NCBI GenBank assembly: GCA_041391405.1
Contig: JAWKOB010000007.1
Coordinates: 845 to 64,844, forward strand
DNA from: Bdellovibrionota bacterium
Lineage (GTDB): Bacteria; Bdellovibrionota_G; JALEGL01; JAGRMV01
DNA length: 64,000 nt
Reading direction: 5' to 3'
How positions within the stretch are numbered: position 1 is the stretch's first letter; each line of letters begins with the position of its first letter. Made by a program: the position numbers and the translations under genes. The notes under the pieces were generated by a model. The model had not been told where the DNA came from and searched no databases. It worked only from the letters and a program-made list of their open reading frames with translations. Positions 2,884-60,735 of this stretch are shown here, piece by piece.

Positions 2884-3870
2884 TTATTGGTTTCTGTGAA
2901 AACTTTCCAGGTAGTCCAGATAGGTGTCGGCGATGGAAATTTTAAAATGATGGTCAAGTTCTACAAAACCCGTTGCACTGGTGATGTTGATTTCTGTCAC
3001 ATCATCGCCAATGAGGTCCAATCCAACAAAATGCATTCCATGTTGAATGAAAAATGGCTTCAAGGAATCCACGATTTTCTTTTCGTGGGATGTAAGTTTT
3101 CCAAAATTCGCTGAAGCGCCGGCCGCTAAATTTCCGCGATGATCTGTTTTGGATGGTTTGCGAATCAAAACATGGGGGACGGCTTCACCGCCAATCACGA
3201 TGATCCGTCGATCACCTTTGGAAATTTCAGGAAGATATTTTTGAAGCACGATGGTTTTGGTGAAGTTGTTGGTGAGCGTTTCCAAAATCACGGCTTTGTT
3301 GAGATCTTTGTGATCAATCACGAAGACGCCGCGCCCACCCATTAAATCCATGGGTTTGGCAACGATCTTGCGATGTTTATCAATAAATTCCATCATTTTT
3401 TCTCGGTTGCGTGTGAACAGAGAAGGGGGCATGAATTCAGAAACGTAATTGATCAAAAATTTTTCATTGAAGGAGCGCAGACTTTCAGGACGATTGCTGA
3501 TGATCGTTTTATTTTGATCGACCAAGTCCAAAATCGAAGTCGCAAAAATATACTCGATGTCATACGGCGGATCTTTGCGCATTAATATGAAGTCGAGTGA
3601 ATTGAGTGGTTTTTTCGAACGAGAATGAACCTTGAAATAGGGCGTTTTTTTGCGGTCCATGGTGATATTTTCCATCATGGCCATAGGCTGGGCACCTTCG
3701 ACAAACAAATCATCCAAAGTCATGGCATATACATCCCAACCGCGGTTCTGAGCGGCTTCAATCATGGATAGGGTAGAATCTTTTTTGACGTTCAACGTGG
3801 GAAGAGGGTCGAGAATGACGCCCATGGATCGCTTTTTCATGGTCAAAATGTAACCCGGAACCCCATCCAT
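2884..3870 (-). CDS. gshB: Glutathione synthetase (prokaryotic ATP-grasp type)
   Basis: MGVILDPLPTLNVKKDSTLSMIEAAQNRGW..., MRKDPPYDIEYIFATSILDL, and an ATP-grasp C-terminal half (RRIIVIGGEAVPHVLIR, GLDLIGD). The true start is probably an internal Met (MKKRSMGVILDP, near 3840). Confidence 0.85.
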   Translation of the reverse strand: MDGVPGYILTMKKRSMGVILDPLPTLNVKKDSTLSMIEAAQNRGWDVYAMTLDDLFVEGAQPMAMMENITMDRKKTPYFKVHSRSKKPLNSLDFILMRKDPPYDIEYIFATSILDLVDQNKTIISNRPESLRSFNEKFLINYVSEFMPPSLFTRNREKMMEFIDKHRKIVAKPMDLMGGRGVFVIDHKDLNKAVILETLTNNFTKTIVLQKYLPEISKGDRRIIVIGGEAVPHVLIRKPSKTDHRGNLAAGASANFGKLTSHEKKIVDSLKPFFIQHGMHFVGLDLIGDDVTEINITSATGFVELDHHFKISIADTYLDYLESFHRNQ

Positions 3871-7411: not shown

Positions 7412-7928
7412 TTAACGAAGAGCTACGGTTTTGCAGTCCTTGTAGAAAGTGCAGAATCTTTGATCGTGGTTTTCGTCACGCTGTTCGCGACCCAACAACC
7501 AGAGCCATTGTTGGCAGCCGCTGAGATGTTCTGTAGTTGGATTGAAGACCTTGCTCAAAACTTTGGAATCAGAGCAACCCAAAAGATTGGAGAAGCTTGC
7601 CAAGTGTTTCTGCCTCCTTTGCCTGGGAAATTTCTTTTGAAGAACGTCATAGTTCACTTCAACAAACATTTCGGTTTCTTTTTCGATTTTGGGCCAAACC
7701 GCCAGCTGTACAGCTGGATGTTCCAGAAGAAAATACCGAAGGTTTGTACCGGAATGTTCCGTTGGTTGTTGCAGCAAGTACTTGGTTGATTTTGGTGTTT
7801 TCACCGAAAGCCATGCTACCCAAACCGCAACCAGCCATACCGTAGTGTCCGGTTCCTTGAAGACCATTTTGTGCAAATGCAGATACGCAGATCAAAGATA
7901 CTGCGAAAAAAGCTACCAAATTTTTCAT
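7412..7928 (-). CDS. Secreted DUF3015-like protein, apparent frameshift
   Basis: Signal peptide MKNLVAFFAVSLICVSAFA followed by GMAGCGLGSMAFGENTKINQVLAATTNGT. The C-terminal half continues in the frame of ORF 7412..7876. The family assignment is from memory of the GCGLGS...LAATTNGT signature. Confidence 0.5.
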
Positions 7929-8019
7929 GTTGAATCCTTTGTGTGAGGTTAAAAATTAACTCGTTGGAAAAAGGTATATTGAAGAGTTTGGTTTGAAAAG
8001 AAAAATTGATATGAATTAA

Positions 8020-8701
8020 ACTCTAATAATACCCTCTACGACGCTTGAAAAATCCATACACGAATCACCGAATGCACTCATTGTGCGCGGTTGACAGCAT
8101 GGTGTAAAAAATCGCGAAAGAAAAGCGAAAATCTTTTATGAACGAGACCTATTGGGGCAAGCCTGTGCCTGCCTTTGGGGATCCAAACGCGCAAATTTTG
8201 ATTTTAGGGCTGGCTCCAGCTGCCCATGGAGCAATCGCACCGGAAGGATGTTCACAGGGGATAATTCGGGATTGTGGCTTTATCGTGCACTCTATGAAAA
8301 TCAACTGTCGAATTTACCTCCGAATCGATACACAAGACAGATTCATTAAAATTGTCTAATGCATATATTACGGCCACGGTTCATTGCGCGCCACTGATAA
8401 CAAACCCACGACGGATGAAATTCAAACCTGCATGAATTGCGTGAAGAATTGGATATGATGAAAAGGTAAAAGTGATCATCGCACTAGATCGATCGCATGG
8501 AATGCATTTTTTCAAATTGCGAAAGAAAGCAGATTGATACAAAAGAAGGAAAAATTGGACACGGTGTTGTCATAAATATCGGGCCTTATAAATTACACTG
8601 GTTCGTATCACCCAAGTCAGCAAAATACATTCACCAAACGTCTGACGCATGAAATGTTCGACTCGATATTTAAAAGCAAATCACTTTTGTTCACCAAATA
8701 A
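8020..8701 (+). pseudogene. Uracil-DNA glycosylase superfamily (family 4/5 type), multiply frameshifted
   Basis: ECTHCARL, then [27 protein letters not shown] and [20 protein letters not shown], lie in different frames. Later fragments run to TAA at 8699-8701. The start coordinate is approximate. Confidence 0.6.
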
Positions 8702-8702
8702 A

Positions 8703-8727
8703 AAAAGGCTCCGGAAGAGCCCCTTTA
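8703..8727. terminator. Short bidirectional terminator-like hairpin between convergent genes
   Basis: AAAAAAGGCTC-CGGAA-GAGCCCCTTT. The stem is 5 bp, flanked by an A-run and a T-rich tract. Confidence 0.35.
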
Positions 8728-8750
8728 AACTTCACTATCTAAGTTATAGC

Positions 8751-9736: not shown

Positions 9737-10303
9737 CTATATGTATCGGCTGGATACGGATAGCCTCTTCCAAGAATGAATACGACGGGTGAATATTTCA
9801 CCATTGGAATCATTCGATTCAAAACTTTCCATGATCACCTTTTCCATAAATCCATGACGGTCGAAAGATCGTGGTAATTGGATTCCGGAATTCCTGATTG
9901 ATTTTTCTGCGCGAAGTTTTGCAACAAACCAATTTTCTGTTTTTCCTTCTTCGACCCCAGCACCGCTAATATAAAGGATTTGCGAGATGTTCATTTTTTT
10001 GGAAGCTGCAACTACATTTTCGGTTCCTTCAGCATCTACTTTTTCATATGTGAGATTTTTTTTTGGATTTTCAAAAGGTGCATTGTTGAATTGAGCCGCA
10101 TTGATGACGACATCACAATTTTCCATCGCATGTTCCAAATCCGAAACGCTGGAGATATCTCCCTGAACATAGTGAACACCAGCAATCGGATTTTTGGGAT
10201 GGGCAGATCGTGTTAGGACTTTGACTTGATGTTGATCAGTCAGTTTTTTGGCAATCGCCGATCCAACAAATCCTGTACCGCCACAAATCAAGATATTGGC
10301 CAT
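9737..10303 (-). CDS. NAD(P)H-binding Rossmann protein (NmrA / complex I NDUFA9-like SDR), C-terminus frameshifted
   Basis: MANILICGGTGFVGSAIAKKL...DVVINAAQ. The frame is lost near 9870. A likely continuation runs to a stop near 9445. Confidence 0.65.
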   Translation of the reverse strand: MANILICGGTGFVGSAIAKKLTDQHQVKVLTRSAHPKNPIAGVHYVQGDISSVSDLEHAMENCDVVINAAQFNNAPFENPKKNLTYEKVDAEGTENVVAASKKMNISQILYISGAGVEEGKTENWFVAKLRAEKSIRNSGIQLPRSFDRHGFMEKVIMESFESNDSNGEIFTRRIHSWKRLSVSSRYI

Positions 10304-12146: not shown

Positions 12147-12466
12147 CGGTAGTCGGGAATCTGCTCGAGAAGTTCTTCGATTTCCGGAATCATGCCCATG
12201 TGATTTTGACGTGCTGCGAGTTCTTTCGCTGTGTGCAAAGAATCTCTGGCCTGGCTGTACTGTTCCGATTTCATCAAGCACTCCCCAAGCATGATGTGAA
12301 CCACCAAATAATCCGGTTTCAAATGCAATATTTCCTGGCAGGCTGTGGTGCATTCCGTCCACATCTCGTGTTCATGGTACATTTTGGCCAAAACAAAGCG
12401 ATCCAGGACATTTTTCGGATGTTTTTCGATTCGGGAAAGCAAATCTTGCAAACGTTTTTGATCCAT
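12143..12466 (-). CDS. Small TPR-like repeat protein
   Basis: 107 aa intact ORF with TPR-like helices (FVLAKMYHEHEMWTECTTACQEILHLKPDYLVVHIMLGECLMKSEQYSQA). Confidence 0.55.
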   Translation of the reverse strand: MDQKRLQDLLSRIEKHPKNVLDRFVLAKMYHEHEMWTECTTACQEILHLKPDYLVVHIMLGECLMKSEQYSQARDSLHTAKELAARQNHMGMIPEIEELLEQIPDYR

Positions 12467-27085: not shown

Positions 27086-27835
27086 CTAGTGTTCGTGCGC
27101 TGTGGCCATGGAAATATAAACCATGGTCAACATCGTAAATACGAATGCTTGAATGAAGCATACGAACAATCCCAACACCATAAATGGCAATGGTACCAAG
27201 TATGGAATCAAGCTGCTGAAAATCCCCAGCACGGTGTGGTCCGCTGAAATGTTTACCATCAAGCGGATGGTAAGCGTGATCGGGCGGAGGATCGTACTGA
27301 TCGATTCAACACTGATAAACAAAACTTGGAACAACAAAAGCGGAACATAGAGTGCCAAAAGGGCGATTGGGTTTTTGATTCCTTCGATTTTCACCGGAGC
27401 CACGAAATGTTTCAAATAACCGATGCCGTGTTCCTTGAATCCATAATAGTTAAACGTGATGAATGAAATCAATGCGAGTGCTGCACCACTTTGCCAAACT
27501 TCAGTTGGTGGCAAGAATCCAGGAATCATTCCGATTAGGTTGGAGGTCAAAAGAAAGATGAAAAGTGTTCCGACATAAGGGAGGTATTTTCTTCCACCAT
27601 GACCAATAACGTCATCGCAGGTGTTGGCCAAAAATTCGAAAAGAATTTCGCCGATGTTGGATAAGGACATTTTTTTGGAAGGCACCACATTTTTGGCTGC
27701 ATTTTTGATGCGTGGGTAGATTACAAATCCAACCAAAATCAAAAGAATGGTTACAAAAATGGAGGTCACCAAGAAAAGATTTTCGTGGGTTACACCGGGA
27801 ATGTAGTGCTGAAAAAATGTAAATGGATGTTTCAT
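27086..27835 (-). CDS. atpB: F0 ATP synthase subunit a
   Basis: Multi-TM protein with the conserved Arg region ILRPITLTIRLMVNISADH. Confidence 0.9.
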   Translation of the reverse strand: MKHPFTFFQHYIPGVTHENLFLVTSIFVTILLILVGFVIYPRIKNAAKNVVPSKKMSLSNIGEILFEFLANTCDDVIGHGGRKYLPYVGTLFIFLLTSNLIGMIPGFLPPTEVWQSGAALALISFITFNYYGFKEHGIGYLKHFVAPVKIEGIKNPIALLALYVPLLLFQVLFISVESISTILRPITLTIRLMVNISADHTVLGIFSSLIPYLVPLPFMVLGLFVCFIQAFVFTMLTMVYISMATAHEH

Positions 27836-47941: not shown

Positions 47942-48296
47942 ATGGTAGAAGCGGGGTCCTTGCTATTGAGACCTCAGCACCGAATTCGAAAAGCGATTGA
48001 ATTTCAAGAGTGTAGGGAAAAGGGAAAAAGGTTTTTAGTAAAAACCTGATTTGTGTATTTCACAAAAACACCTTTCCACATTCACGAATCGGTCTGATCG
48101 TCACAAAGAAAACAGGTTCGGCCACAGTAAGAAATCGTTGGAAAAGAATCATTCGTGATTTTTTTCGCACCAATCCGAATCATTTTCCCAAACCCATGGA
48201 CTACGTCTTTGTGGTGAAATCCACCACCAAGAATCTGCCACCGAAAGATATTCGCTCCGAGCTTTTGAGCTTAGTAGGAAGAATAAAACCAAATGA
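47942..48296 (+). CDS. rnpA: Ribonuclease P protein component, apparent frameshift(s)
   Basis: MVEAGSLLLRPQHRIRKAIEFQECREKGKRF, then in another frame RIGLIVTKKTGSATVRNRWKRIIRDFFR...MDYVFVVKS. The 3' end is uncertain: either an ATGA overlap with yidD at 48293-96, or the ORF continues to 48396. Confidence 0.7.
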
Positions 48297-48505
48297 AACA
48301 AATCTTTGTATATCTGATCCGAGGGTATCAACGACTGATTTCCCATGTTGGGAACCAGATGTCGATTCCACCTTCGTGTTCGGCCTATGCAATTGAGTCC
48401 ATCGAGAAAAATGGAGTGGTTTCTGGTGGTTTTCAAACACTTCGAAGATTATCCAAATGTCATCCATTTCACGATGGCGGATTTGATCCCGTGGAGAAAA
48501 TGTAA
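48293..48505 (+). CDS. yidD: Membrane protein insertion efficiency factor YidD
   Basis: IRGYQRLIS...PPSCSAYAIESIEKNGVVSGGFQTLRRLSKCHPFHDGGFDPV. Confidence 0.85.
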   Translation: MKQIFVYLIRGYQRLISHVGNQMSIPPSCSAYAIESIEKNGVVSGGFQTLRRLSKCHPFHDGGFDPVEKM

Positions 48506-50146
48506 TGAATAGTGAAGCAAGAAGATTGTTGTTGGCCATGTTCCTGACCTTCGGATTTTGTTCGTTTGGTCCAAATATATGACTCCGCAACCTGCACCGG
48601 TTGCACAAACCCAACTTACCAACACATCCTCTTCCGAAGTTGTTGCGCCAACAACCACAACAGTGGCTCGACTTCAGCAATTCCTTCCAAATCTCAAACA
48701 CCAACCGTACAAAATGTCGTTGTTGAAACGTACGAAGTTTCCAACCCTGACTTTGTTGCAAAATTTTCCAATCAATCCGGTGTGATTTCTTCCGTTGATT
48801 TGCTCCATTATTTCAAGGAACAGAAAAAAGATTCCAAACCGATTTCAGTCATTCCGCTCGGCCAAGCTGCTTCTGCACCGCTTTTGTGGGACATTTCTTT
48901 CAAAAGTTCCTCAACATCCACTCCGAAAGCCGTCTTGGATGATCGTCAAACCATGTATCAATGGACGGAAAGAACTCCAAATCAGGTTGGATTCAGCACA
49001 CAAGTCGCCCCAGGCATTCAAGTTCAAAAATATTACCGTTTTGGAAAAGATCCATATGTCATTGAACACGTACTTCACATCGACAATCAATCCAGCGAAA
49101 CACTTTACGTCGATGCCAACACATCCATGTATTCGGCTCATATTCCGAAAGAAGAACAATCTTCATCTTTTCTTTCTCCGCAACATCCGGATGTCATGGC
49201 TGTGGCCTATGCACATGATGAAGAATACCATCTGAAACTTGCCAAACTTTCGGATAAGAAAGCTCAAATCACCACAGGTCCGATTTCTTGGGCCGGATTT
49301 TCTTCTCAATATTTCTTGATGACGGCGATTCCAACGGAAAGCATGTGGAATTCGATGGGTGGAAAATACGAGAATGAAATCGGTTCCTGGACCATGAACT
49401 ACGCGCAAAGAACAGTCGCAGCCAAATCCAACCTCGAATATGTCATGAAGTTTTACACAGGACCAAAGCAAATGGAGCTTTTGGCAACCGTAACCCCAAC
49501 CTTGGATCGCTCAATCGATTTGGGTAGTTGGATTGGTGGTTTGGCGCGCATGATTCATAAACTTTTGGGGTGGATCTATGGATTCATTCCTAATTACGGA
49601 TGGGCAATCATCATCTTGACGGTGTTGGTTCGCTTGGCCGTGTTCCCGCTAGCTCAAATGCAGGCGCGTTCGATGAAACGAATGACGTTGCATAAGCCAG
49701 CGATGGACGCATTGAAGGAAAAGTACGGAAAGGATCGCGAAGCATATTCGCGTGAATTGATGAGCTATATGAGAACCAACAAAATCAATCCAGCCAGTGG
49801 TTGTTTACCACTCTTGATTCAATTTCCGGTTTTCATCGCTTTGTACCGCGTGCTCTACAACTCAATTGAGTTGAGACATGCACCATTTGGTTTGTGGATT
49901 CATGACCTATCGGCTCATGATCCATTTTTTGTGCTGCCCGTGTTAGTGGGCGTCACGTTTTATTTGCAAACAAAACTGAACCCGACTCCGATGGCAGACC
50001 CGGCTCAGCAGACCATGATGAAAATCATGCCTGTGATGTTCTCGGTATTCATGATCTTCCTGCCTTCGGGACTCAATCTGTACATCTTTGTGAGTACGCT
50101 TTGGGGAATTGTCCAACAGTATATGGTTCAGAAACAATCAACCTAA
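48505..50146 (+). CDS. yidC: Membrane protein insertase YidC, N-terminal frameshifts (near 48555 and 48665)
   Basis: The C-terminal core GWAIIILTVLVRLAVFPLAQMQARSMKRM...GCLPLLIQFPVFIALY is intact. The N-terminal TM segment (MNSEARRLLLAMFLTFG...) and linker are in other frames. Confidence 0.9.
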
Positions 50147-50158
50147 TAGAGGTATAGT

Positions 50159-51445
50159 ATGGGTGTATTCAACCTGTTCAGAAGTAAGAAAAAAGAAGAA
50201 GTCAAAGCGACTTCGAAATTCATCGATGATGAATGGCTAGAAGTATCAGCTAGTTCAAAAGACGAAGCCATTGAACGCGCATGCGTAGCGCTCAACACCA
50301 ATCCAACTCACCTGGAAGTGAAATTCCTTTCCAAAGACGGAAAAAAGATTCGCGCTCGCAAATCAACCGGTGAATCGGAAGTGACCGATGAACAACCAGT
50401 CAAACAACCTAGACAAGGTCAGGGTCGTGGACGTGGTCGTGCTGCAAACCGTGAAGGTGGTTCGCGTGATGGTCAACAAGCCCAAGGTCGCGGACGCGGT
50501 CGTGGCACTCGCTCCGAATCTTCAGATCGCAACGAATCCCGCGGTGATTCTAGAAATGAATCGCGTGGTGGTCGCGGACGCAATCAACGCAACAATCGTC
50601 GACAAGATGAACAAACCGACGAAATGATGATGCGTGATGGTGAAGAAGAAAACTTCAACACAGAAGGCAACAGCGGTGAAGGTCGTTACAACGATTACAA
50701 TGATGGTTATGAACCTCAGGAAAGCCGTTCTCGTCGTCATGAAGAACCGGAAGAAGATTTCGTAGAAGAGATCGAGGAAGAAACCGATTTGGGCCGCAAA
50801 GCCAAAGAAATTCTTGAACAAATCGTTCAGAAAATCGAAGCGAATGCAAAAATCGAATTGTTTGAAACCAACAAGACCATCCGTTTGGAAATCATCAGTT
50901 CTGAATCCGGATTGTTCATTGGAAAATTCGGTCAAACTTTGGATTCGATCCAACATCTTTTGAAGAAGATTTTGGAAATCAAATTTGAAGAAGGCAAAAA
51001 CTTGGTTGTGGACGCAGAAGAATATCGCGTTCGCCGTGAAGAATCGATCGAAACCAAAGCACGTAAGCTAGCAAAAAAAGCACGTCAAGAAGGTCGTCCA
51101 GTCAGTGTTGAACCGATGAATGCGATGGATCGTCGCATCGTTCACATGGCGCTCAAAGGCGAACCTGGTATCGAAACCAAAAGCGTAGGCGAGGGTTCAA
51201 GCCGTCGCGTGCTCATCGTACCTAAACGCCGTGCTTCCGGTCGCAATGAAGGCGGACGTGGACGTGGTGGTCGCGGAGGCCGTGGTCGTGATCGCGATCG
51301 TGGCAACGAAAGACAAGGCGGACGTTCGTTCGACGGAAATTCCCGTATGCACGACTCGTACGATGTTCCTGCACTTCCAAAGAGTGAAGTGTTCGGTGAC
51401 AATCCCGAAGAGTATTTTGAAAATGCCTTCGACGACGAAAAATAG
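50159..51445 (+). CDS. jag: Jag/KhpB (Jag_N + KH + R3H) RNA-binding protein with large Arg/Gly-rich insertions
   Basis: Jag_N-like EVSASSKDEAIERACVALNTNPTHLEVKFL. KH-like ELFETNKTIRLEIISSESGLFIGKFGQTLDSIQHLL. R3H MNAMDRRIVHMALKGEPGIETKSVGEG. RG-rich tracts QGRGRGRAANREGGSRDG...GRGRGRG...RGGRGRNQRNNRR and C-terminal GRGRGGRGGRGRDRDRG. Confidence 0.85.
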   Translation: MGVFNLFRSKKKEEVKATSKFIDDEWLEVSASSKDEAIERACVALNTNPTHLEVKFLSKDGKKIRARKSTGESEVTDEQPVKQPRQGQGRGRGRAANREGGSRDGQQAQGRGRGRGTRSESSDRNESRGDSRNESRGGRGRNQRNNRRQDEQTDEMMMRDGEEENFNTEGNSGEGRYNDYNDGYEPQESRSRRHEEPEEDFVEEIEEETDLGRKAKEILEQIVQKIEANAKIELFETNKTIRLEIISSESGLFIGKFGQTLDSIQHLLKKILEIKFEEGKNLVVDAEEYRVRREESIETKARKLAKKARQEGRPVSVEPMNAMDRRIVHMALKGEPGIETKSVGEGSSRRVLIVPKRRASGRNEGGRGRGGRGGRGRDRDRGNERQGGRSFDGNSRMHDSYDVPALPKSEVFGDNPEEYFENAFDDEK

Positions 51446-52796
51446 AACGACTATCGTAGCGATTTCGACACCACCAGGAATTGGTGGTGTCGGAGTCATA
51501 CGACTTTCGGGTCCTGATTCTCTTTCAATCTCCCAAGCCCTTTTTCAAACCTCCGCTTCTTTTAAACATTCCCAACTTTGTTACGGCTATTTACTTAATC
51601 CCATTACCCATGAAAATGTAGATGATGGATTTGCAGTTTATTTTGAAGCTCCGAACTCATTCACAGGTGAAGATGTTGTGGAGCTTCAGCTTCATGGCAA
51701 TCCCTTTTTGCTTTCCAGCGTTGTTGAGCTTTGCTTGGCGCAGGGTGCGCGCTTGGCATCACCTGGAGAGTTCACCAAACGTTCCTATCTCAACGGCAAA
51801 ATGGATCTGCTTCAAGCAGAAGCTGTATCTGAATTGATTCACAGCCAATCGGTGATGGAAGCCCGTCAATCGCGCATGCGCTTGGATGGAAAACTTTCTT
51901 CCCATCTTGAAAAACTTCGGGATGATGTCATTGATGTTTTGGCCGAAATCGAAGCCGATGTAGATTTTCCAGAAGAGGACATCGATCCCAAATCCCAAGC
52001 AAAACTACTTTCAAGCATTCAAAATATTTCAGCTACGACTCATTCTCTGTTGTCGACGTACAATCAAAATCAAAAAATATCCTCTGGGTTTCGCATCGCT
52101 TTGGTCGGAAAACCAAATGTTGGAAAATCATCTCTTTTCAATGCAATTTTGCAAAATGATCGAGCCATTGTGAATGCTCAAGCCGGCACCACGCGCGATG
52201 TACTATCTGAAGAAATTATTCTCAATGGTTACCGAGTGAAGTTTTTTGATACGGCAGGCCTTCGATCAGATACTTCGGATGAAATTGAAAAAGAGGGAAT
52301 TACCCGTTCGAGCCAAGAAATAGAAAAAGCAGATTTGGTTTTATGGCTTGGATCAACATTGGAAAAACATTCTGAAACGGAACTAGAAGTTTTACGAAAT
52401 GTGGAAAAATCGAGACGTTGGCTTGTGTGGAACAAGGTTGATTTAGAAAAAGCTCCAAAACAGTTTGATGGTTTTTTTGAAAAAACATTCAAAATTTCTG
52501 CAAAGACCGGTCTTGAAGTCGCTTCACTGCTGGAAAATATCAATGACCTTTTAAAATCGTCACAGAACGAAGATTTTGGTGGCGGCATATCCAACGACAG
52601 GCAAAAAGAGTTGATCGAAGAGATGATTCAAGCATTGAATCGTTCGATGGAGATGATCAAGTCCAAACAACCCCCTGAACTCACAGCTGTAGAGTTTCGT
52701 CAGATTTATCATGCGCTCAACCGTATCCTTGGCAAAGAGGAAAATATGGAAGCCATGTACGACCGAATTTTCTCTAAATTTTGCGTCGGTAAATAG
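51423..52796 (+). CDS. mnmE: tRNA modification GTPase MnmE
   Basis: TIVAISTPPGIGGVGVIRLSG, G1 GKPNVGKSSLFNA, DTAGLR, C-terminal FCVGK. Start ATG 51423 lies within ORF 51231..52796 and overlaps the jag 3' end. Confidence 0.92.
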   Translation: MPSTTKNRTTIVAISTPPGIGGVGVIRLSGPDSLSISQALFQTSASFKHSQLCYGYLLNPITHENVDDGFAVYFEAPNSFTGEDVVELQLHGNPFLLSSVVELCLAQGARLASPGEFTKRSYLNGKMDLLQAEAVSELIHSQSVMEARQSRMRLDGKLSSHLEKLRDDVIDVLAEIEADVDFPEEDIDPKSQAKLLSSIQNISATTHSLLSTYNQNQKISSGFRIALVGKPNVGKSSLFNAILQNDRAIVNAQAGTTRDVLSEEIILNGYRVKFFDTAGLRSDTSDEIEKEGITRSSQEIEKADLVLWLGSTLEKHSETELEVLRNVEKSRRWLVWNKVDLEKAPKQFDGFFEKTFKISAKTGLEVASLLENINDLLKSSQNEDFGGGISNDRQKELIEEMIQALNRSMEMIKSKQPPELTAVEFRQIYHALNRILGKEENMEAMYDRIFSKFCVGK

Positions 52797-52829
52797 ATAA
52801 GTATTTGATATTATTGTTTAATATTCATT

Positions 52830-52845
52830 TGTTCCACGTGGAACA
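52830..52845. promoter_or_regulatory. parS centromere-like site 1
   Basis: TGTTCCACGTGGAACA is a perfect 16 bp palindrome. It has one change from the TGTTNCACGTGAAACA consensus. Confidence 0.75.
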
Positions 52846-53095
52846 TCGGAATCAAGTGATGGCCCTAAAATATGAATTACAATCTTGAAACACTTCATTT
52901 CTATGATCCTAAAAATTTTGTGGTTTATTTGATCCCTGCAATTGTTTTGCAAAGCCCTTCAGCTTTGCAGTGAGAAAAAATTTGAATGTATCCTCTTTAA
53001 TTGTCTAATCATAATTCACTCATTCAAATTTTCTCCTGTTTCATTTTAAATTCCCTACGTTTACTTTCACTGATCGATAAAAGTTGAAAATTAAT

Positions 53096-53203
53096 CCTCG
53101 AGGAGTTTGCGGTTGGGTGGCGCGATGGGTGGGATACCCGAGGAGCTGCGCACCGGAGGGTATGGAGTCCCGATCGCGACCGGGCCCGACCGACACCGAC
53201 GTG
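53096..53203. other. GC-rich structured island (candidate small RNA or foreign remnant) in an AT-rich intergenic region
   Basis: There is a sharp local GC rise. Stem CGCGATGGG (53121-29) pairs with CCC-g-ATCGCG (53169-78). It encloses the hairpin ATACCC (53134-39) / GGGTAT (53158-63). Confidence 0.3.
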
Positions 53204-53214
53204 TTGTTTGAAGG

Positions 53215-53230
53215 GATTTCACGTGGAACA
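53215..53230. promoter_or_regulatory. parS-like site 2 (degenerate left half)
   Basis: GATTTCACGTGGAACA. Confidence 0.6.
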
Positions 53231-53317
53231 TTTGAAAAGAAAACAAAGGGAGCTCATTTTGTTCTTTTCAAACCCGAATGAGTCGATTATTGTCCTTTTC
53301 AACGAGAAAAACACCAT

Positions 53318-53333
53318 GGTTTCACGTGAAACA
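53318..53333. promoter_or_regulatory. parS centromere-like site 3
   Basis: GGTTTCACGTGAAACA matches the consensus at 15 of 16 positions. Confidence 0.75.
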
Positions 53334-53402
53334 TTTACACACTGCATTATATAAATATTGATAATCTTTGGTTTCTTCCCGATTTTTCGACTGTTGAACA
53401 TC

Positions 53403-54044
53403 AGTAAGTGCTAAAGCCCAAATTCAAGAAGAATGGATCGCCCAACACGGTCACTTCAATGCCGATCAGATTCAAACCCAAGATGGCTTGGTAACCAAAA
53501 CCCAAGAAATTGCGACCAAAACGGGATTTTCACAATAATTTTTCAGGTAGTTACATTGCTTCGACATTATCGGGTTAAGAAGACAATGTGGTGGTGGAGC
53601 AGGAGCTTATGTCCATGGGCCAGCCATTATCGGGGAAGGAACAGTGATTCGTCAGGGGGCTTACATCCGTGGCAGTGTCATTACGGGTAAAAACTGTGTG
53701 ATTGGTCATACCACCGAAGTCAAATCGTCTATTTTTTGTGATGAAGCCAAAACCGGACATTTTGCTTACATTGGTGATTCGATTCTTGGCGCCGTCATGT
53801 GAATCTTGGCGCCGGAACAAAAATTTCAAATCTAAAAATGACGAACGACGAAATCGTGCTTCGCATTGACACTGAAGTTGTGAAAACAGGACTTCGAAAA
53901 ATGGGAGCAGTCATTGGTGATCATTGCGAAACGGGATGCAACTCAGTTTTGAATCCGGGAGTTTTGCTTGCCAAATGCATGGTGTATCCGGCCATCGCCG
54001 TTCGCAAAAAATATTACGCGCCAAAAACGGTAATCAGAGAGTAA
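53403..54044 (+). pseudogene. Left-handed beta-helix (hexapeptide-repeat) transferase, multiply frameshifted
   Basis: Hexapeptide pattern GAYVHGPAIIGEGTVIRQGAYIRGSVITGKNCVIGHTTEVKSSIF...GHFAYIGDSILG, then NLGAGTKISNLK...GAVIGDHCETGCNSVLNPGVLL in another frame. The start is approximate. Confidence 0.55.
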
Positions 54045-54046
54045 TT

Positions 54047-55910
54047 ATGAAGCGGAACATAATTGTCATAGGCGCCGGACACGCCGGCATCGAAGCTCAC
54101 TGGCAGCAGCCCGCATGGGCCTGCAAGTTTACAACGCTTACCAGCAACCTCGATCGCATTGGTTTTATGTCTTGCAATCCGGCCATCGGCGGACTTGGAA
54201 AATCTCATCTTGTGAAAGAGATCGATGCGCTCGGCGGTGAAATGGGAAAGGCTACCGATGCAACTGGAATTCAATTTCGAATTCTGAACGCGAGCAAAGG
54301 ACCAGCAGTTTGGGCAACGCGCGTACAATCCGATAAACATTTGTACGCCAGCTACATGAAAACCGTCGTGGAAAACACACCCAATCTTTCCGTGAAGCAA
54401 GGGATGGCGGAAAAGCTTCTGGTCGAGGATGACAAAATCATCGGCGTCCAAACTCAAATGGGCGAAAGATTTTGCTCCTGCTGTGATCATCACTACAGGT
54501 ACATTTTTGCAAGGATGATTCATATCAGCACCTACACTGAGTCTGCGGGCCGTGCAGGCGACAAAGCTTCGATGGGCCTGAGCGATAGCCTCTTTAGGCT
54601 TTCGTGTGGGTCGGTTGAAAACCGGAACGGTTCCACGAATTGATGCGAAAAGCATCGATTATTCAAATCTTGCTGAGCAGCCTGGAGATATCCCGACACC
54701 CAAAGTTTCATTTTTCCATCCACGCACCCTCGTGAAACAGGTTTCTTGCCACATCACCTACACCAATGAAAAAACGCATGATCTGATCCGCAGCAATTTG
54801 CATCTGTCGGCGATGTACAGTGGAAAAATCAAAAGTACCGGTCCACGCTATTGTCCATGCATCGAAGATAAAATCACGCGTTTTGCGGATAAATCACAAC
54901 ATCAAATTTTCTTGGAACCCGAAGGTTTGTCCACACAAGAAGTTTATCCAAACGGACTTTCCAATTCACTTCCTTTGGATGTTCAAATCGCTTTTTTGAA
55001 AACGATTTCTGGTCTTGAAAATGTGGAAGTCATGCGACCTGGCTACGCAATCGAATATGATTATGTGGATCCAACCGAGTTGCATCCTTGGCTTGAAACC
55101 AAAAAAATCAAGGGACTCTTCCACGCAGGTCAGCTCAATGGAACCACTGGTTATGAAGAGGCCGCAGCTCAAGGTCTTCTTGCAGGCATCAACGCCGTAC
55201 TTTCATTAGATGCTCAAAAAGAGCCATTCGTTCTTTCGCGTGCAGAAAGTTATATTGGCGTGATGGTGGATGATTTGGTGACCAAAGGAGTGAACGAACC
55301 GTATCGCATGTTCACTTCCCGCGCAGAACACAGATTGCACCTTCGTGAAGACAACGCCGACCAACGCGTTCTTTCATATGGATATAAGCTTGGAACCGTT
55401 TCTCAATCCATGTTCAATCAGTTTGAACAAAAGATGATGAATATCAAATCTGCCGTAGAGCGTTTGGAATCCCTTAAATTGAAACCAAATTTTGAAACCA
55501 ATCAAAAATTGGAAAACATGAATTTGACACCGCTTCGTTCGCCAAACACCTATTATGAATTTTTAAAACGTCCGGAAATGAATTGGCAAACACTGGTTCA
55601 AATTGACCCTTCTTTGAAGGACATTGATGAAACCATTTTCAATCAAGTTGAAATCACATCGAAATATGAAGGCTATATTCAAAAAGAACGCGATGAAGTT
55701 GCCCGCACTCTTCGTGATGAAGAACAAGTGATTCCAATGGAGTTCGATTATTCCATGCTTCCAAGCATCACAGCGGAAGTTCGCGAAAAACTTACACGCA
55801 TCCAGCCGCGAACCCTTGGGCAAGCGTCACGCATTTCAGGAATCACACCGGCAGCGATCGGCGTGCTCAGCATTTACCTAAGAAAATTTCGCGAGGAAAA
55901 AGAAATATGA
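54047..55910 (+). CDS. mnmG: tRNA uridine 5-carboxymethylaminomethyl modification enzyme MnmG (GidA), several apparent frameshifts in the N-terminal third
   Basis: [38 protein letters not shown], then [12 protein letters not shown]... through to the C-terminus in ORF 54606..55910. Confidence 0.9.
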
Positions 55911-55913
55911 AGT

Positions 55914-55996
55914 CGCAAAGGGTGAATTGGTTTGGGCTTTGCTCAAACCAAGAGGGAAAAGCGTTTTTCCATATGTCGAGCCGAGGAGGCGAGACG
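55914..55996 (+). promoter_or_regulatory. Conserved modular 5' leader element, copy 1 (upstream of parA)
   Basis: Box A CGCAAAGGGTG (55914-24). Inserted hairpin TTGGTTTG/CAAACCAA. Box B AGGGAAAAGC (55953-62). Box C CCATATGTCGAGCCGAGGAGGCGAGACG (55969-96). Box C ends 19 nt before the parA ATG. Confidence 0.55.
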
Positions 55997-56015
55997 TTAA
56001 ACAGTAAGGAAGTAC

Positions 56016-56825
56016 ATGGCTAAAATTATTACAATATCCAATCAAAAAGGTGGCGTAGGCAAAACCACGACATCGGTGAACTTGGCAGCATCGCTGGGAG
56101 CGCTTGAGAAAAAAATTCTGCTTGTGGATCTTGATCCGCAAGGTAACGCTTCGAGCGGCGTCGGTATTCATCTTGAGCCAGAAGGTCTTCAAATCTATCA
56201 TGCGCTTTTGGGTGAAAAAACCATGAAAGAAATCATGGTTGAAACCCAAGTTCCATTTGTGACGCTTGCACCGTCCAGCGGAGATTTGATTGGTTTTGAA
56301 ATTGAAGGCATTGAGCTCGAAGAGCGTGAGCAATGTTTGAAAAAAGCGTTGGCCACGGTGAGCGATCAGTTTGACTATATTATTATCGATTGCCCTCCGT
56401 CCCTTGGATTGCTCACAGTGAACTCACTTACAGCCGCGGATCATGTGATTGTTCCACTTCAATCGGAATATTATGCGCTCGAGGGGCTAAGCCGCCTTTT
56501 GCAAACCATTGAATTGATCCAACAGTCGGTCAATCCAAACCTGACATTGGAAGGTATCGTGTTGACGATGTTCGATTCACGCAACAGTCTTTCCCATCAG
56601 GTGGCCAATGAAGTGAAAGAACATTTTCCTGAAAAATTGTGGGAAACCAAAATTCCTCGAAACGTTCGTTTGTCCGAGGCCCCAAGTTTTGGAAAGCCAG
56701 TTCTATTGTATGACGTGCGTTCCACCGGAGCGACCAGTTATTTGAATCTCGCCCGCGAATTTCTCGATCATTTCGAACGCAAACAAAAAACAATTTCCAA
56801 CCATGTAGTAACGGAGAACGTATGA
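56016..56825 (+). CDS. parA: Chromosome partitioning ATPase ParA (Soj)
   Basis: Deviant Walker A NQKGGVGKTTTSVNLA. LLVDLDPQGNASSG. Confidence 0.95.
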   Translation: MAKIITISNQKGGVGKTTTSVNLAASLGALEKKILLVDLDPQGNASSGVGIHLEPEGLQIYHALLGEKTMKEIMVETQVPFVTLAPSSGDLIGFEIEGIELEEREQCLKKALATVSDQFDYIIIDCPPSLGLLTVNSLTAADHVIVPLQSEYYALEGLSRLLQTIELIQQSVNPNLTLEGIVLTMFDSRNSLSHQVANEVKEHFPEKLWETKIPRNVRLSEAPSFGKPVLLYDVRSTGATSYLNLAREFLDHFERKQKTISNHVVTENV

Positions 56826-57763
56826 GCAAACCAAAGAAACCAGGAAAGCACTTGGCCGCGGAATTTCTTCATTGATTCCTGGTCCAAAATCCAAACCTGC
56901 AGTAACCGCTGCACCGGTTGTAACAACGGCAGCGACTGTAGTCCCCGTTCCAACCGAAGCACCTGCGACGGACATCGCGTTGAATGAAAAATCGCTCTTC
57001 GTTGAAATCGATCGCATTCGAATGAATCCACGACAACCACGCAAAACTTTCGAAGAAAAGGCGCTTGCCGATCTGGTTGAATCCGTGAAAGAAAAGGGCG
57101 TGCTTCAACCTTTGCTCGTTTGTCGCAAAGGTCTGCACTATGAACTCATCGCAGGTGAACGCCGTTATCGCGCATCCAAAGAGGCGGGCCTTAAACTCGT
57201 ACCTGTTCGTATTTTAGCCAACGATCAAGAGCAACTTGAAATCGCTTTGATTGAAAATTTGATCCGTTCCGATTTGAATCCGATCGAAGAAGCCAAAGGC
57301 TACGAAAAACTCCAAAAAAGAGTTCAATCTGACGCACGAACAAATTTCTCAGAAGGTTTCCAAAGATCGTACAACCGTGACCAATGCTTTGCGACTTTTG
57401 AAATTGCCTCTTGTGGTTCAACAAGAACTTCAGCGAGGAAATTTGTCGATGGGCCATGCTCGAGCTTTGCTTTCCCTTGAAAAAGAACATGTCCAACTGG
57501 AGCTTGTTCGAGAAATTCTAAGTCACGGTCTTTCGGTTCGCGCAACGGAACGACGCGTTTCCGAATTGAGCAAGCCAGCCAAACCGACATTGGTGGCCAA
57601 ACGTGAAAATCCAAATGTGACCTCAGTTCGCGAAGAAATTCAGAGAAAACTTGGAACCAAAGTTGAGATTAAGGAAAAATCGGCCGGCAAAGGTGAGATT
57701 CGCATTCAGTATTTCTCAACCGCGGATTTAACACGCATCGTCGATTTGTTGAAAAATATTTAA
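56822..57763 (+). CDS. parB: Chromosome partitioning protein ParB (Spo0J), apparent frameshifts near 56850 and 57330-57375
   Basis: MSKPKKPGK(A)LGRG... then PRQPRKTFEEKALADLVESVKEKGVLQPLLV, IAGERRYRASKEAG, and the HTH region TNALRLLKLP...GHARALL in ORF 57377..57763. Confidence 0.9.
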
Positions 57764-57846
57764 TCAATTAAATTAAATAGTTACGTGGTTTGATTGTGGC
57801 CCACCGCAATTTCATATATATAGAGGACCTTCTTTAAGGAGAGCGC

Positions 57847-59388
57847 ATGAAAAAAGTCGTCGTTTTGACCTTCATTTCTTTTTTGGCAGCCTGTGGATTG
57901 CAAGTTCGCGGAACAGGAACAAACACCAATAATAATCCCAATACAGCCAACCCTAACGGAAACTCCTTCACAGTAGGTGGCCAAGCTTCAGGCATTCCAG
58001 TGGGCAAAGATGTCAAGGTAACCATTGATGGAAATGAATATTCGATCGATGAAAACGGCAGCTTCACCTTTCCACTGACTTTTCCAAATGGTGCATCTTA
58101 TGATGTGGATGTTGTAACGGGACCTGGCGGAGCTTACACGTGTTCTCTTGAAAACGACGCGGGCACCATCAACAATGCCAATGTCACCAACGTTTTTTTG
58201 GATTGCCAATGCGCCATCGGCTCTTTGGGTACAGGATCTGGAACAATGGCGGATCCAACGCTTGTATATACAGCGCAGCAACTCAACAACATCGCCGTTG
58301 CCGCCACTCCAAGCAGCTTCACCAAAAAATACAAACAAGTTTGTGATTTGGATTACGGAGATATGTCTCCGAAACCAATCGGCCAACAATCCAACCCTTT
58401 CATGGGCGTCTACGACGGAAACGGGTTCTACATTCTGAATTATACATCAGATGAAAACACGCCTTCATTGGCACGCAAAAAAGGTTTGTTTGGACATACT
58501 TTTGCCGCGTGGCTGAAGAACATCAATCTGAAAAACTTCACGCTTGTGGGTGACGCAAACATGGGAACCGTCGCAAATCCAGCGAATATGGGAGCTTTGG
58601 GCGGATCGATCACGGACAGCGCCGTCGATCATATTTACGCTGAAGATATTTCCATCCGCAATCATGGAAACTATTTTCACGGTATTGGTGGTTTGATTGG
58701 CAACCAGACTCAAAATGATTTGTCAGGCACAAGCACGGTCGTTGGTTTGAGTTATGTTCATATGAAAAATGTGGATGTAAAAGGTGGAATATCCAACAAA
58801 GTCGGGGGCATCGTAGGTTATTCCCAAGTTGGAAGTGAAAATCTGGAAATCACGGATTCTCACATCCACTCATGCGCGTATCGTTGCGGCGGCATTGCAG
58901 GGGCAATTTTCAACAAAGCGGTCTTTGCAGATATCAACGCATTGAACATGACGGTGGAAGGTGACGAAGCTGTCGGAGGAATTACCGGTGAAAATATCGG
59001 ACTTTTGGATCGCACCGCATTCGTGGGAACCGTCAATGGCTTGACCAATTTGGGTAAATTCGGCGGCATCATCGGAAAAGGAAACGCAAGTGATCCAGCA
59101 TTCAACAGTTACACCGTATCGGATGTTTTGTCGGTTGCAGGAACAACAGCAGCTGGAAGAATCAATGGATCAACTTCCTTGATCACCAACATTGCTTATG
59201 ACAGCACACAAACTTGCCAAAACTGTACCGTGAATTCCGGAACAGCGTATGCCGGTAACAACGCTTTTCAATCCGGATCCCATGCTTCTCAAACGTCCTG
59301 GGATTTCACAAATACATGGTGTTTGACGACTTCTTATCCACGTTTGTCAGGTGTGCCAAATGCGGTTTGTGAAGAGCCTGAATTATAA
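57847..59388 (+). CDS. Surface lipoprotein with GLUG-motif repeats
   Basis: Lipobox SFLAAC. FMGVYDGNGFYILN, KGLFGH, repeated GGLIG/GGIVG/GGIAG/GGITG/GGIIG units. The C-terminus has SWDFTNTW...YPRL. Confidence 0.6.
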   Translation: MKKVVVLTFISFLAACGLQVRGTGTNTNNNPNTANPNGNSFTVGGQASGIPVGKDVKVTIDGNEYSIDENGSFTFPLTFPNGASYDVDVVTGPGGAYTCSLENDAGTINNANVTNVFLDCQCAIGSLGTGSGTMADPTLVYTAQQLNNIAVAATPSSFTKKYKQVCDLDYGDMSPKPIGQQSNPFMGVYDGNGFYILNYTSDENTPSLARKKGLFGHTFAAWLKNINLKNFTLVGDANMGTVANPANMGALGGSITDSAVDHIYAEDISIRNHGNYFHGIGGLIGNQTQNDLSGTSTVVGLSYVHMKNVDVKGGISNKVGGIVGYSQVGSENLEITDSHIHSCAYRCGGIAGAIFNKAVFADINALNMTVEGDEAVGGITGENIGLLDRTAFVGTVNGLTNLGKFGGIIGKGNASDPAFNSYTVSDVLSVAGTTAAGRINGSTSLITNIAYDSTQTCQNCTVNSGTAYAGNNAFQSGSHASQTSWDFTNTWCLTTSYPRLSGVPNAVCEEPEL

Positions 59389-59519
59389 AGCTAAGCAGCT
59401 GAATTTATTTTGTTTTTAGGAGTGTCGCCAAAGGCTGAAAACTTCCTGAAATAGTCTTGACAAGCGGTCCCTAGTTTATTACTTGAGGCTGAAGAAAATT
59501 AGGTTTTTCAAGTATTTAC

Positions 59520-60045
59520 ATGTTTAGCAAGAACACCAAAAACGAAGCCAAGGAGAAACCCATGGGCCTACTCACAAAAGACGAACCATCTACCTCCACC
59601 AACAATCGTACATACGGAACATCCACACCATCTTCAAATGCAAGCGGTTTTAATGCAGTTCTAGATCGTGGAAGTGAATTTGAAGGAAAATTGACCTTCG
59701 AAGGAACTGTTCGAATCGATGGAAAATTCAAAGGCGATATTTTCTCCGAATCCCACATGGTGATCGGTGAAAGTGGACGTGTTGAAGGTACGGCAACGGT
59801 TGGTTCCGTTTCCATCAGCGGAAATTTCAATGGTGATATTCCTTAAAACAAAAGTCGAACTTCACAAAGGTGCGGTTGTCAAAGGTGACATTTATACACC
59901 ATCCTTGACGATTGAAGACGGCGTGAAATTCGATGGAAGAGCCGTGATGGATTCCAACAGTTTGAGCAAAGAATTGGGCCAATTCAAGAACACAAATTCT
60001 GAAAAAGCCAAAATTACAAGCACAGGCCTTACAGCTTCTGCCTGA
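59520..60045 (+). CDS. Bactofilin (DUF583) cytoskeletal protein, frameshift near 59840
   Basis: FEGKLTFEGTVRIDGKFKGDIFSESHMVIGESGRVEGTATVGSVSISGNFNGDI, then VELHKGAVVKGDIYTPSLTIEDGVKFDGRAVM in the next frame. Confidence 0.8.
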
Positions 60046-60064
60046 GTAGAGATTAATTAGAAAA

Positions 60065-60151
60065 CGCAAAGGGTGGGTTTTTAGGGAAAAGCATGCAGCC
60101 CGAAGGGTTGCAAAACGCTAGATCCATGTGTCGAGCCGAAGAGGCGAGACG
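60065..60151 (+). promoter_or_regulatory. Conserved modular 5' leader element, copy 2 (upstream of atpF')
   Basis: Box A CGCAAAGGGTG (60065-75). Box B AGGGAAAAGC (60083-92). Inserted hairpin TGCAGCCC-gaa-GGGTTGCA (60094-112). Box C CCATGTGTCGAGCCGAAGAGGCGAGACG (60124-51). Box C ends 17 nt before the TTG start at 60169. Confidence 0.55.
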
Positions 60152-60168
60152 AACAAAAAGAGGGTTCC

Positions 60169-60735
60169 TTGTTTCGTAAAAGTTTAGATACGGTTGTAAT
60201 TGCGCTGATCTTTGTCGGCGCAGCGATGCTTTTGGAAAAATTCAATTTTTGGGGTGCGCTTGGTCTTGAAGCTCCCCACTTCTTCATTTATTCCGGCCTG
60301 ATGTTTTTAACTTTGGTCGTGATTTTTCAGCACACGATCTTCGATCCATACGGTGCAATTTCCACGGAACGACTGGAACAAACCACTGAAAAAAGAAAAC
60401 GCGCAGATGAACGCAAACTTCACGCCGAATCAATTCTAAAATCTTATGAAGCCAGCATTTTGAATGCGCGTATGGACGCTCTCAAGCAGCGTGAGCGCAT
60501 TGCCATGGAAGCTGAAAGCAAAGAACGCGAAATCATTGAAGCTGCAAAACAAAAATCTCAAGCATCGATGGACGCAGCGATGAAAGAAATTTCCGCTAAA
60601 ATCGAAATCACACGCAAAGAATTGGTCACGGCCAGCACGCCGCTTGTCGCGCAGCTTGTGGACGAAGTACTTTCTGGTGAAATGGGCAAAAAACCAGGCT
60701 CGGCATCCTCCAAATCCGTAGAATCGAGAATGTAA
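60169..60735 (+). CDS. atpF: F0 ATP synthase subunit b' (b-like)
   Basis: A TM segment (FFIYSGLMFLTLVVIF) followed by a long charged coiled coil. The start is uncertain: TTG 60169 or an internal Met. Confidence 0.7.
   Translation: MFRKSLDTVVIALIFVGAAMLLEKFNFWGALGLEAPHFFIYSGLMFLTLVVIFQHTIFDPYGAISTERLEQTTEKRKRADERKLHAESILKSYEASILNARMDALKQRERIAMEAESKEREIIEAAKQKSQASMDAAMKEISAKIEITRKELVTASTPLVAQLVDEVLSGEMGKKPGSASSKSVESRM

Follow-up and report, generated by a model that had tools for sequence, protein, structure and literature searches.

Leader-like elements upstream of parA and atpF' are probably copies of a low-copy structured interspersed repeat in a Bdellovibrionota-like clade

The window analysed here is a 64,000 nt stretch of DNA from a Bdellovibrionota bacterium (assembly GCA_041391405.1, contig JAWKOB010000007.1). 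Two of its intergenic spacers, upstream of parAB and of the atpF'FHAG operon, contain a short element built from the same three ordered blocks, named boxes A, B and C. An initial annotation, made from the letters alone, took both copies for structured cis-regulatory leader RNAs, linking the two operons to one regulatory input. We find instead that the two sequences are probably paralogous copies of a low-copy, hairpin-rich, non-coding interspersed repeat of an uncultured Bdellovibrionota-like clade. Their positions before parA and atpF' would be incidental. The description that fits best is that of a new repeat family, small, structured and interspersed, within the broad class that holds the REP, BIME, ERIC, BOX and MITE elements.

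Copy 1 lies between the stop codon of mnmG (55908–55910) and the ATG of parA (56016). Copy 2 is bounded by a bactofilin stop codon (60043–60045) on one side and the TTG start codon of atpF' (60169) on the other. All three boxes are present in both copies where the initial annotation had placed them, and the match is far beyond chance. Box A has two matches only in the window, also when one mismatch is allowed. Box C likewise has two, at up to 3 mismatches, against 0.00 expected from 100 shuffles. A covariance model built from related copies recovered these two copies only in the 64-kb window, the next match scoring 12 bits. The distances from the end of box C to the start codon, 19 nt for the parA ATG and 17 nt for the atpF' TTG, had also been given correctly. 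So had the different hairpin in each copy, with arms TTGGTTTG/CAAACCAA between boxes A and B of copy 1 and TGCAGCCC-GAA-GGGTTGCA in copy 2.

The element is a discrete unit with a size range of 83–88 nt. Two architectures were seen and no others. In type 1 (about 83 nt), the order is box A, hairpin 1 (hp1), AG, hairpin 2 (hp2), which includes box B, about 5 nt, and hairpin 3 (hp3), which is the core of box C. The edges of the unit are sharp, with CGCAAAGGGTG on the left and the end of hp3 plus a few nucleotides on the right. In type 2, a 7-nt spacer takes the place of hp1 and an additional hairpin follows box B. The spacing between boxes A and B is 28 nt in type 1 versus 7 nt in type 2. The type 2 architecture is found at one site only, the atp junction, where the relative L008 has it as in the window; the type 2 hairpin of L008 is TGCAACCC-GAA-GGGGTTGCA.

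In both window copies, box C itself folds as a hairpin, GTC-GA-GCC / GGC-GA-GAC, whose centre is a tandem G.A mismatch. Relatives carry fully paired forms of hp3, GTCTCGCC/GGCGAGAC in L004 and GTCGAGCC/GGTTCGAC in L008. More fully paired forms are GTTGCGGCC/GGCCGCAAC in L010, GAATCGCC/GGCGATTC in L027 and GTTCGTGAC/GTCACGAAC in L037. The centres of the hp3 arms are either GA or TC, and all four combinations occur across the window copies, the L004 atp copy, L008 and L022. These are GA+GA (mismatched, in most copies), TC+GA and GA+TC (both perfect), and TC+TC (mismatched, in L022). The alternation suggests quasi-palindrome template switching in DNA, not point mutation.

Two divergent copies illustrate which parts of the element are fixed. 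L027, from a distant metagenome-assembled genome labelled 'Deltaproteobacteria', has box A and AGAGGGAAAAGCGTTTTTCC letter for letter. In L037 the box A and box B segments are slightly altered, to CGCAAAGGGGTGAA and GGGGGAAAGCGTTTTCCC, and the pairing of hp2 is preserved through a shifted G.U pair (GGGGAAA/TTTTCCC). The hp1 and hp3 sequences of L027 and L037 are entirely different, and the hairpins are still formed.

Loci were collected from DNA pattern scans and from relatives' contigs reached via ParA and GlyRS homologues, and the flanking genes were checked with Pfam. The element occupies seven non-homologous loci; an eighth copy is that of L027. With respect to the neighbouring genes, it is sense at three of the seven loci and antisense at the other four. 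The sense copies are those at the parA junction, at the atp junction and at L025 (the same site as L035), where the element lies 10 nt past an ABC substrate-binding-protein gene and is convergent with the next gene. Antisense copies lie between a 54-aa membrane open reading frame (ORF) and a rhomboid gene (L009, the same site as L020), between an SDR gene and AdoHcyase (L010) and between PilZ and MsrB (L013). The remaining antisense copy, in L037, abuts a kinase stop codon and is 52 nt before the same substrate-binding-protein gene. All seven loci are intergenic and one end of the element is near a stop codon. For antisense copies this is the hp3 end, 0–5 nt away in 4/4 cases; for sense copies it is box A, 3–23 nt past the stop codon. 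No orthologues of the genes that flank the other loci are found in the window, and loci of the L036/L035 type are far from the origin (~1.78 Mb on a 2.06-Mb contig). Copies are scattered regardless of gene starts or orientation, the pattern that the initial annotation itself had associated with a generic intergenic repeat.

In a metagenome pattern scan, 12 of 18 matches were chance co-occurrences of the two boxes. Used as negative controls, these scored at most 15 bits, compared with 51–106 bits for real type 1 copies. A genome-collection scan for box A to box B with the type 1 spacer returned one locus, L027; the scan with the exact box C core gave 0 matches. The covariance model detected no copies beyond these, either in the window or across the remainder of the relatives' loci searched. 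Hence, the family is low-copy in the DNA that was searched.

We compared presence of the element with a five-protein tree of topology ((window,L001),L004),(L031,(L028,L008)),L034. At the parA junction, the element is present in 2 of 7 related lineages, the window and L004. The junction is empty in L001, the closest relative (96% ParA identity), and in L008, L028, L031 and L034. In L001, L008, L028 and L031 mnmG overlaps the start of parA, and in L034 mnmG ends 5 nt before it. At the atp junction, type 2 copies occur in the window and L008 and type 1 copies in L004 and L022. Here, the element is absent from L028, L031 and L034 and truncated in L001. What is left in L001 is box A with a portion of hp1, joined to the ribosome-binding site of atpF', while hp2 and hp3 are gone. 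A deletion between two AAGAGGG motifs, one in box B and the other in the Shine-Dalgarno sequence, could account for this remnant. Both the presence and the architecture of the element are out of step with the protein tree. Hence, repeated gain, loss, conversion or exchange is needed.

The same junctions hold other small repeats. In L034, an unrelated palindrome, GGGTCAGACC(Y)CGTCTGRCCCC, is found at both the mnmG-parA and the bactofilin-atpF' junction (9965–9990 and 12345–12370). A related palindrome, GACGACCCCGTCTGGTCGCC, is at 7465–7490 of L035 (the same site in L025), between the kinase and substrate-binding-protein genes, where L037 has the element studied here. The L034 and L035 palindromes are a second repeat family with shared landing spots. 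Since the unrelated L034 palindrome is at both junctions, these spacers take small repeats in general.

A riboswitch-like or protein-binding leader RNA coupling parAB to atpF'FHAG should be in sense orientation in the 5' untranslated region of the genes under its control, and should be kept before their orthologues in relatives. In the window, both copies are indeed sense and end 17–19 nt before start codons. Furthermore, L004 carries the same pair of sites, and the structure is conserved with covariation. Conversely, five of the seven related lineages have no spacer before parA, mnmG overlapping or abutting the gene. Before atpF', the element is missing from three lineages and its hp2 and hp3 have been deleted in the closest relative. 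Four other loci have it antisense to both neighbours and one in a convergent spacer, and the genes downstream elsewhere (rhomboid, AdoHcyase, MsrB, ABC substrate-binding protein) are functionally unrelated. The window also has a second ATP synthase locus, atpB (a subunit; 27086–27835, minus strand), which is apart from atpF'FHAG, ~33 kb off on the opposite side of the origin. A covariance model search found no copy of the element at atpB. A leader function is most improbable, and the common regulatory input proposed for parAB and the atp operon does not hold. What survives of the proposed cis-regulatory RNA is a discrete structured element with conserved blocks and covarying hairpins. The absence of a known RNA class was confirmed. 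Rfam 15 had no match at the element, whether at the gathering threshold or at permissive E-values (up to 10 for window positions 55800–60400 and up to 0.1 for six other element-bearing loci).

Covariation was computed on nine aligned type 1 copies with 500 shuffles. Paired cells made up 92.7% of the total, compared with 82.5% in shuffles. Changes on both sides of a pair were found in 12 of 26 pairs, being frequent in hp1 (8/11), present in hp3 (4/8) and absent from hp2 (0/7). The observed covariation was reached by 0/500 shuffles and no slid register came close. Such covariation is what a leader RNA should display, yet it is unspecific; DNA palindromes would display it too. The paired cells include 15 G.T and 0 A.C cells, which correspond to only ~5 independent events. 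From these counts, the box A strand is the strand whose fold is kept. Predicted RNA folds of the plus strand had energies of −29.8 and −29.9 kcal/mol for copies 1 and 2, compared with −21.6 and −20.5 kcal/mol for the minus strand. The plus-strand fold is 8–9 kcal/mol better than the minus. For copy 1, each strand is more stably folded than shuffled sequence (z-scores −3.2 and −3.3).

Folding of both strands would be expected of a domesticated 3'-end or intercistronic mRNA stabiliser or processing site, selected at each locus for protecting the upstream gene's transcript and effective in either orientation since both strands form hairpins. One end of the element is always within 0–23 nt of a stop codon, and there is precedent in the REP, ERIC and Correia elements (PMC3049150). 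However, the strand asymmetry of the wobbles indicates that only one strand's fold is selected. In addition, an exonuclease barrier needs no invariant unpaired boxes, and relatives have freely lost the element. We consider a stabiliser improbable.

A binding-site module in duplex DNA, for a chromosomal protein such as a nucleoid or origin-proximal factor, would have boxes A and B as its recognition sequences. Placement independent of orientation is expected of such a module. Each box holds an RGGG(W)RAA-like motif, and the window copies are 8–12 kb from the dnaA/oriC region. Nevertheless, the spacing of the two boxes shifts between the architectures, compensatory stem changes and one-strand wobbles are unexpected for a duplex, and other copies are distant from the origin, as described above. 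We regard this explanation as very unlikely.

The parA and atpF' copies might alternatively be two members of a family of strand-specific functional non-coding RNAs, either small RNA genes or a self-transcribed RNA element. Boxes A and B/hp2 would be the functional segments, single-stranded or bound by protein, and hp1 and hp3 would be scaffold. Invariant segments combined with covarying stems, even in the divergent L027 and L037, are in keeping with this proposal, as are the confinement of all 15 wobble cells to one strand and the more stable fold of the box A strand. Low copy number fits RNA genes better than selfish repeats, and placement regardless of neighbour orientation is normal for small RNA genes. 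Conversely, homology begins exactly at the first C of box A, and no shared or promoter-like motif is found in the upstream flanks. A scan found no sigma-70-like promoter at the element. Neither window copy has an intrinsic terminator-like site, hp3 being followed by TTAAAC or AACAAA and not by a U tract. Type 2 copies do without hp1, every examined site has close relatives in which the element has been lost or cut short, and there is no Rfam match. On balance, we think that a functional RNA family is unlikely.

Several observations weigh against the interspersed repeat that we favour. The copy number is apparently far below that of the classical REP, BOX or ERIC families, and the statistics of copy number and orientation rest on seven loci, not on whole genomes. 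We can only infer a mechanism of mobility, since terminal inverted repeats are absent, target-site duplications do not exceed chance and no transposase was found in the window. Even where the stems have fully diverged (L027), box A and box B/hp2 remain 100% identical. Fixed boxes with diverged stems are typically a mark of functional RNAs more than of selfish repeats in decay. In GC content (52–55%) the element also exceeds the window (43%), unlike most MITEs. It is possible, and we put this forward tentatively, that the element is an undescribed strand-specific functional module, kept as a family by selection across divergent Bdellovibrionota lineages. The module may be a small structured RNA with an active or protein-binding box A and box B/hp2, or a non-autonomous mobile element copied via a single-stranded DNA or RNA intermediate. 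In the latter case, an enzyme could read the invariant boxes and two hairpins, leaving no inverted repeats or target duplications.

As an interspersed repeat, the element would spread between permissive spacers, or pass from one to another through gene conversion or recombination. It would be tolerated only where no gene or ribosome-binding site is broken, and such a limit would explain why both window copies end just upstream of the Shine-Dalgarno sequence. The structure-dependent step most likely acts on a single strand, either of DNA during replication or mobilisation or of a transcript. Wobbles restricted to the box A strand, together with the lack of terminal inverted repeats and target duplications, argue for a single-strand step and make a cut-and-paste transposase acting on duplex ends unlikely. 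The invariance of the unpaired boxes likewise suggests that a folded single strand is recognised. Any effect on the expression of parAB or the atp operon would be a by-product, exerted via intercistronic hairpins in the mnmG-parAB and bactofilin-atp transcripts. By analogy with REP, ERIC and BOX repeats, these hairpins may change mRNA stability or processing.

Hallmarks of mobile elements were sought at the ends of the element. The left end, CGCAAAGGGTG, and the reverse complement of the right end, CGTCTCGCCTC, agree in the first two bases only, so that there are no terminal inverted repeats. The longest words common to both flanks are 3–5 nt, which is not above chance for a target-site duplication. 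No transposase was identified among the 28 window ORFs scanned, and no REP-associated tyrosine transposase (RAYT) gene was seen in the window. Since the element lacks the terminal inverted repeats, target-site duplications and AT-richness that define MITEs, and the uniform stems and high copy number that define REPs, it is filed in the general kind only. Searches of plasmids, phages and viral contigs, and a literature string search, returned nothing relevant.

Four specific identities were considered and rejected. A sigma-54 promoter could be read in hp1 of copy 1 (TGG-N9-TTGC), but its GG is a covarying part of the stem and lacks conservation. A CsrA-type GGA loop in hp3 was dismissed as the loop varies (GAGGA, GAAGA, AAAGA, GAT, GTG, GACG and GTAG). 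Inspection revealed no conserved ORF on either strand, which disposes of a small ORF or type I toxin. Ends similar to those of IS200/IS605 were rejected, as hp1 is unlike hp3, both vary from copy to copy, and no target sequence recurs in the left flanks.

Table 1. Positions of the two element copies, their parts and relevant genes in the 64-kb window.
Feature	Position	Strand	Sequence or remark
Copy 1	55914–55996	+	type 1 architecture, 83 nt; 105.9 bits with covariance model R1
Copy 2	60065–60151	+	type 2 architecture, 87 nt; 30.5 bits with covariance model R1
Box A	55914–55924 and 60065–60075	+	CGCAAAGGGTG; identical in both window copies
Box A, extended form	55914–55927	+	CGCAAAGGGTGAAT; unpaired; invariant in 9/9 aligned type 1 copies
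hp1	55927–55951	+	TTGGTTTGGGC / GCTCAAACCAA; 11-bp stem, TTT loop
Box B	55953–55962 and 60083–60092	+	AGGGAAAAGC
hp2	55954–55970	+	GGGAAAA-GCG-TTTTTCC; sequence invariant; box B is its 5' arm
Type 2-specific hairpin	60094–60112	+	TGCAGCCC-GAA-GGGTTGCA
Box C	55969–55996 and 60124–60151	+	CCATRTGTCGAGCCGARGAGGCGAGACG; 28-mer
hp3 of copy 1	55975–55995	+	GTCGAGCC-GAGGA-GGCGAGAC; 8 bp
hp3 of copy 2	60130–60150	+	GTCGAGCC-GAAGA-GGCGAGAC
parA	56016–56825	+	downstream of copy 1; own ribosome-binding site AAGGAAG retained
atpF'	60169–60735	+	ATP synthase b' subunit; downstream of copy 2
rnpA	47942–48288		frame-split
yidC	48516–50143		frame-split
Hexapeptide-transferase gene	53339–54041		frame-split
mnmG	54047–55904		frame-split
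parB	56827–57760		frame-split
Bactofilin gene	59520–60042		frame-split

The surroundings of individual copies provided further observations. The ABC substrate-binding-protein gene is inverted among close relatives, being on the plus strand in L035 (7546–8463) and L037 (5705–6625) and on the minus strand in L036 (7701–8636) and L038 (7614–8540). The element follows the gene on the plus strand in L035, precedes it on the minus strand in L037 and is missing from the site in L036 and L038. Inverted element copies flanking the gene could have mediated its inversion. A possible degenerate relic of the element is present in L036 at 8655–8729, with only 8.8 bits (E = 0.59).

Partial copies may also occur. 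L009 has a second box A (CGCAAAGGGTGAA, 13/13) at 299–355 (157–213 in L020), 268 nt downstream of the full copy. A different small hairpin follows it. The segment, which reaches 16 bits with the model, may represent a partial copy or solo left end. In L013, a degenerate hp3-like segment, GTCAAGCCGAAGAGGCGAAAC, is at 3672–3692 (1709–1729 in reverse-complement orientation), ~10 nt upstream of box A. Between CGAGCC and GAGAC inclusive, 17 of 19 positions agree with the hp3 consensus. The segment falls within, or directly beside, the 5' end of the oppositely oriented MsrB ORF. This segment may be the remnant of a tandem copy.

The copy in L027 sits between direct repeats of ~40 nt, GGAGCGCGA(A)GTGCGACCCAGAAAACAGACGAACCTTGG, at 7748–7787 and 7952–7991 (reverse-complement orientation), with an AT-rich stretch upstream. 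The idea that these repeats mark an attachment site was set aside, as no tRNA or tmRNA was found there. Finally, the 8-mer ATTAATTA precedes box A by 2–7 nt at the atp site of the window (60051–60058), L004 and L022, and likewise in the non-orthologous L037 copy. This 8-mer might belong to the element as an optional extension on the left, or it may be a coincidence of AT-rich sequence.

The window is the chromosome origin region. Genes on the minus strand include gyrA, gyrB, recF, dnaN and dnaA. The plus strand carries rpmH, rnpA, yidC, jag, mnmE, mnmG, parA, parB, a 513-aa ORF, the bactofilin gene and atpF'FHAG. The 513-aa ORF (57847–59388, plus strand), between parB and the bactofilin gene, has no Pfam match, and the same is true of the relatives' products. 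It is found in 6 of 7 related lineages and is missing in L034. Distant relatives of the window proteins are labelled Bdellovibrionota, Bdellovibrionales or Oligoflexia, and the best relatives are metagenome-assembled genomes. No database record identical to the window ParA was found. Compared with L001 orthologues, 6 of 17 window genes are broken over 2–3 reading frames (window positions 47942–60045; listed in Table 1). The breaks are probably indel errors of an error-prone assembly, or else the mark of a decaying genome. Hence, run lengths within the element, for example the T-run of hp2, should be read with caution.

The failure of the link between segregation and ATP synthesis removes a tempting but wrong annotation. 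It also provides a cautionary case, in which conserved blocks with variable hairpins before two operons can be a repeat and not a riboswitch. If the preferred reading of an interspersed repeat is right, this is the first description of a small structured family of that kind in an uncultured clade resembling predatory bacteria. Insertion polymorphism, possible local spread and the inversion of a gene that it flanks could make the family usable as a marker for plasticity of the genome. If it is true that the invariant boxes are read on one strand, they could point to an unrecognised mobilisation or RNA-binding activity.

Comparison with known systems places the element among small intergenic repeats. 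It resembles the leader RNAs and riboswitches of Rfam in its conserved unpaired blocks, its covarying stems of variable length and the location of two copies directly upstream of ribosome-binding sites. Unlike these, it is not confined to 5' untranslated regions or to the sense orientation, is not conserved in orthologous leaders and has no Rfam family. MIRUs of mycobacteria have a fixed orientation relative to transcription and tiny overlapping ORFs. They are short repeats between a stop codon and the next start inside operons, a setting similar to mnmG-parA, but the orientation of the element studied here varies and it has no conserved ORF.

REP palindromes are very numerous, conserved in sequence within a genome, have a GTAG-type head and are tied to a RAYT gene. 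The element shares with the REP, BIME and REPIN repeats of proteobacteria its extragenic location near stop codons, its occurrence in both orientations, insertion polymorphism among relatives and, possibly, recognition of a single-stranded hairpin. It differs from REP in that its stems vary and only the unpaired boxes are fixed, in having 2 copies in 64 kb, and in the window having no visible RAYT gene. BIME and ERIC repeats, and the definition of MITEs with Correia elements, RUP and Nezha as examples, have been reviewed (PMC3049150). As with MITEs, the element is less than 200 bp long, non-coding, highly base-paired and dispersed, and its presence differs among relatives. Unlike MITEs, it has no terminal inverted repeats, target-site duplication or parent insertion sequence identified among the window ORFs scanned, and it is GC-richer than the window instead of AT-rich.

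BOX elements are present at over 100 copies per genome, whereas searches for the element studied here gave 2 copies in the 64-kb window and none elsewhere in the flanking DNA. In Streptococcus pneumoniae, BOX elements (boxA-boxB-boxC) are plentiful along the chromosome, end in terminal inverted repeats and generate target-site duplications (PMC3049150). The present element has neither feature and shares no sequence similarity with BOX. In organisation, the two are alike. Both are small, non-coding and intergenic, with much predicted secondary structure. Both can sit between one gene and the start of the next, to be co-transcribed. BOX elements are assembled from ordered modules of which one can be absent or replaced, and the present element may be too, to judge from its type 1 and type 2 architectures, the latter found at one site only.

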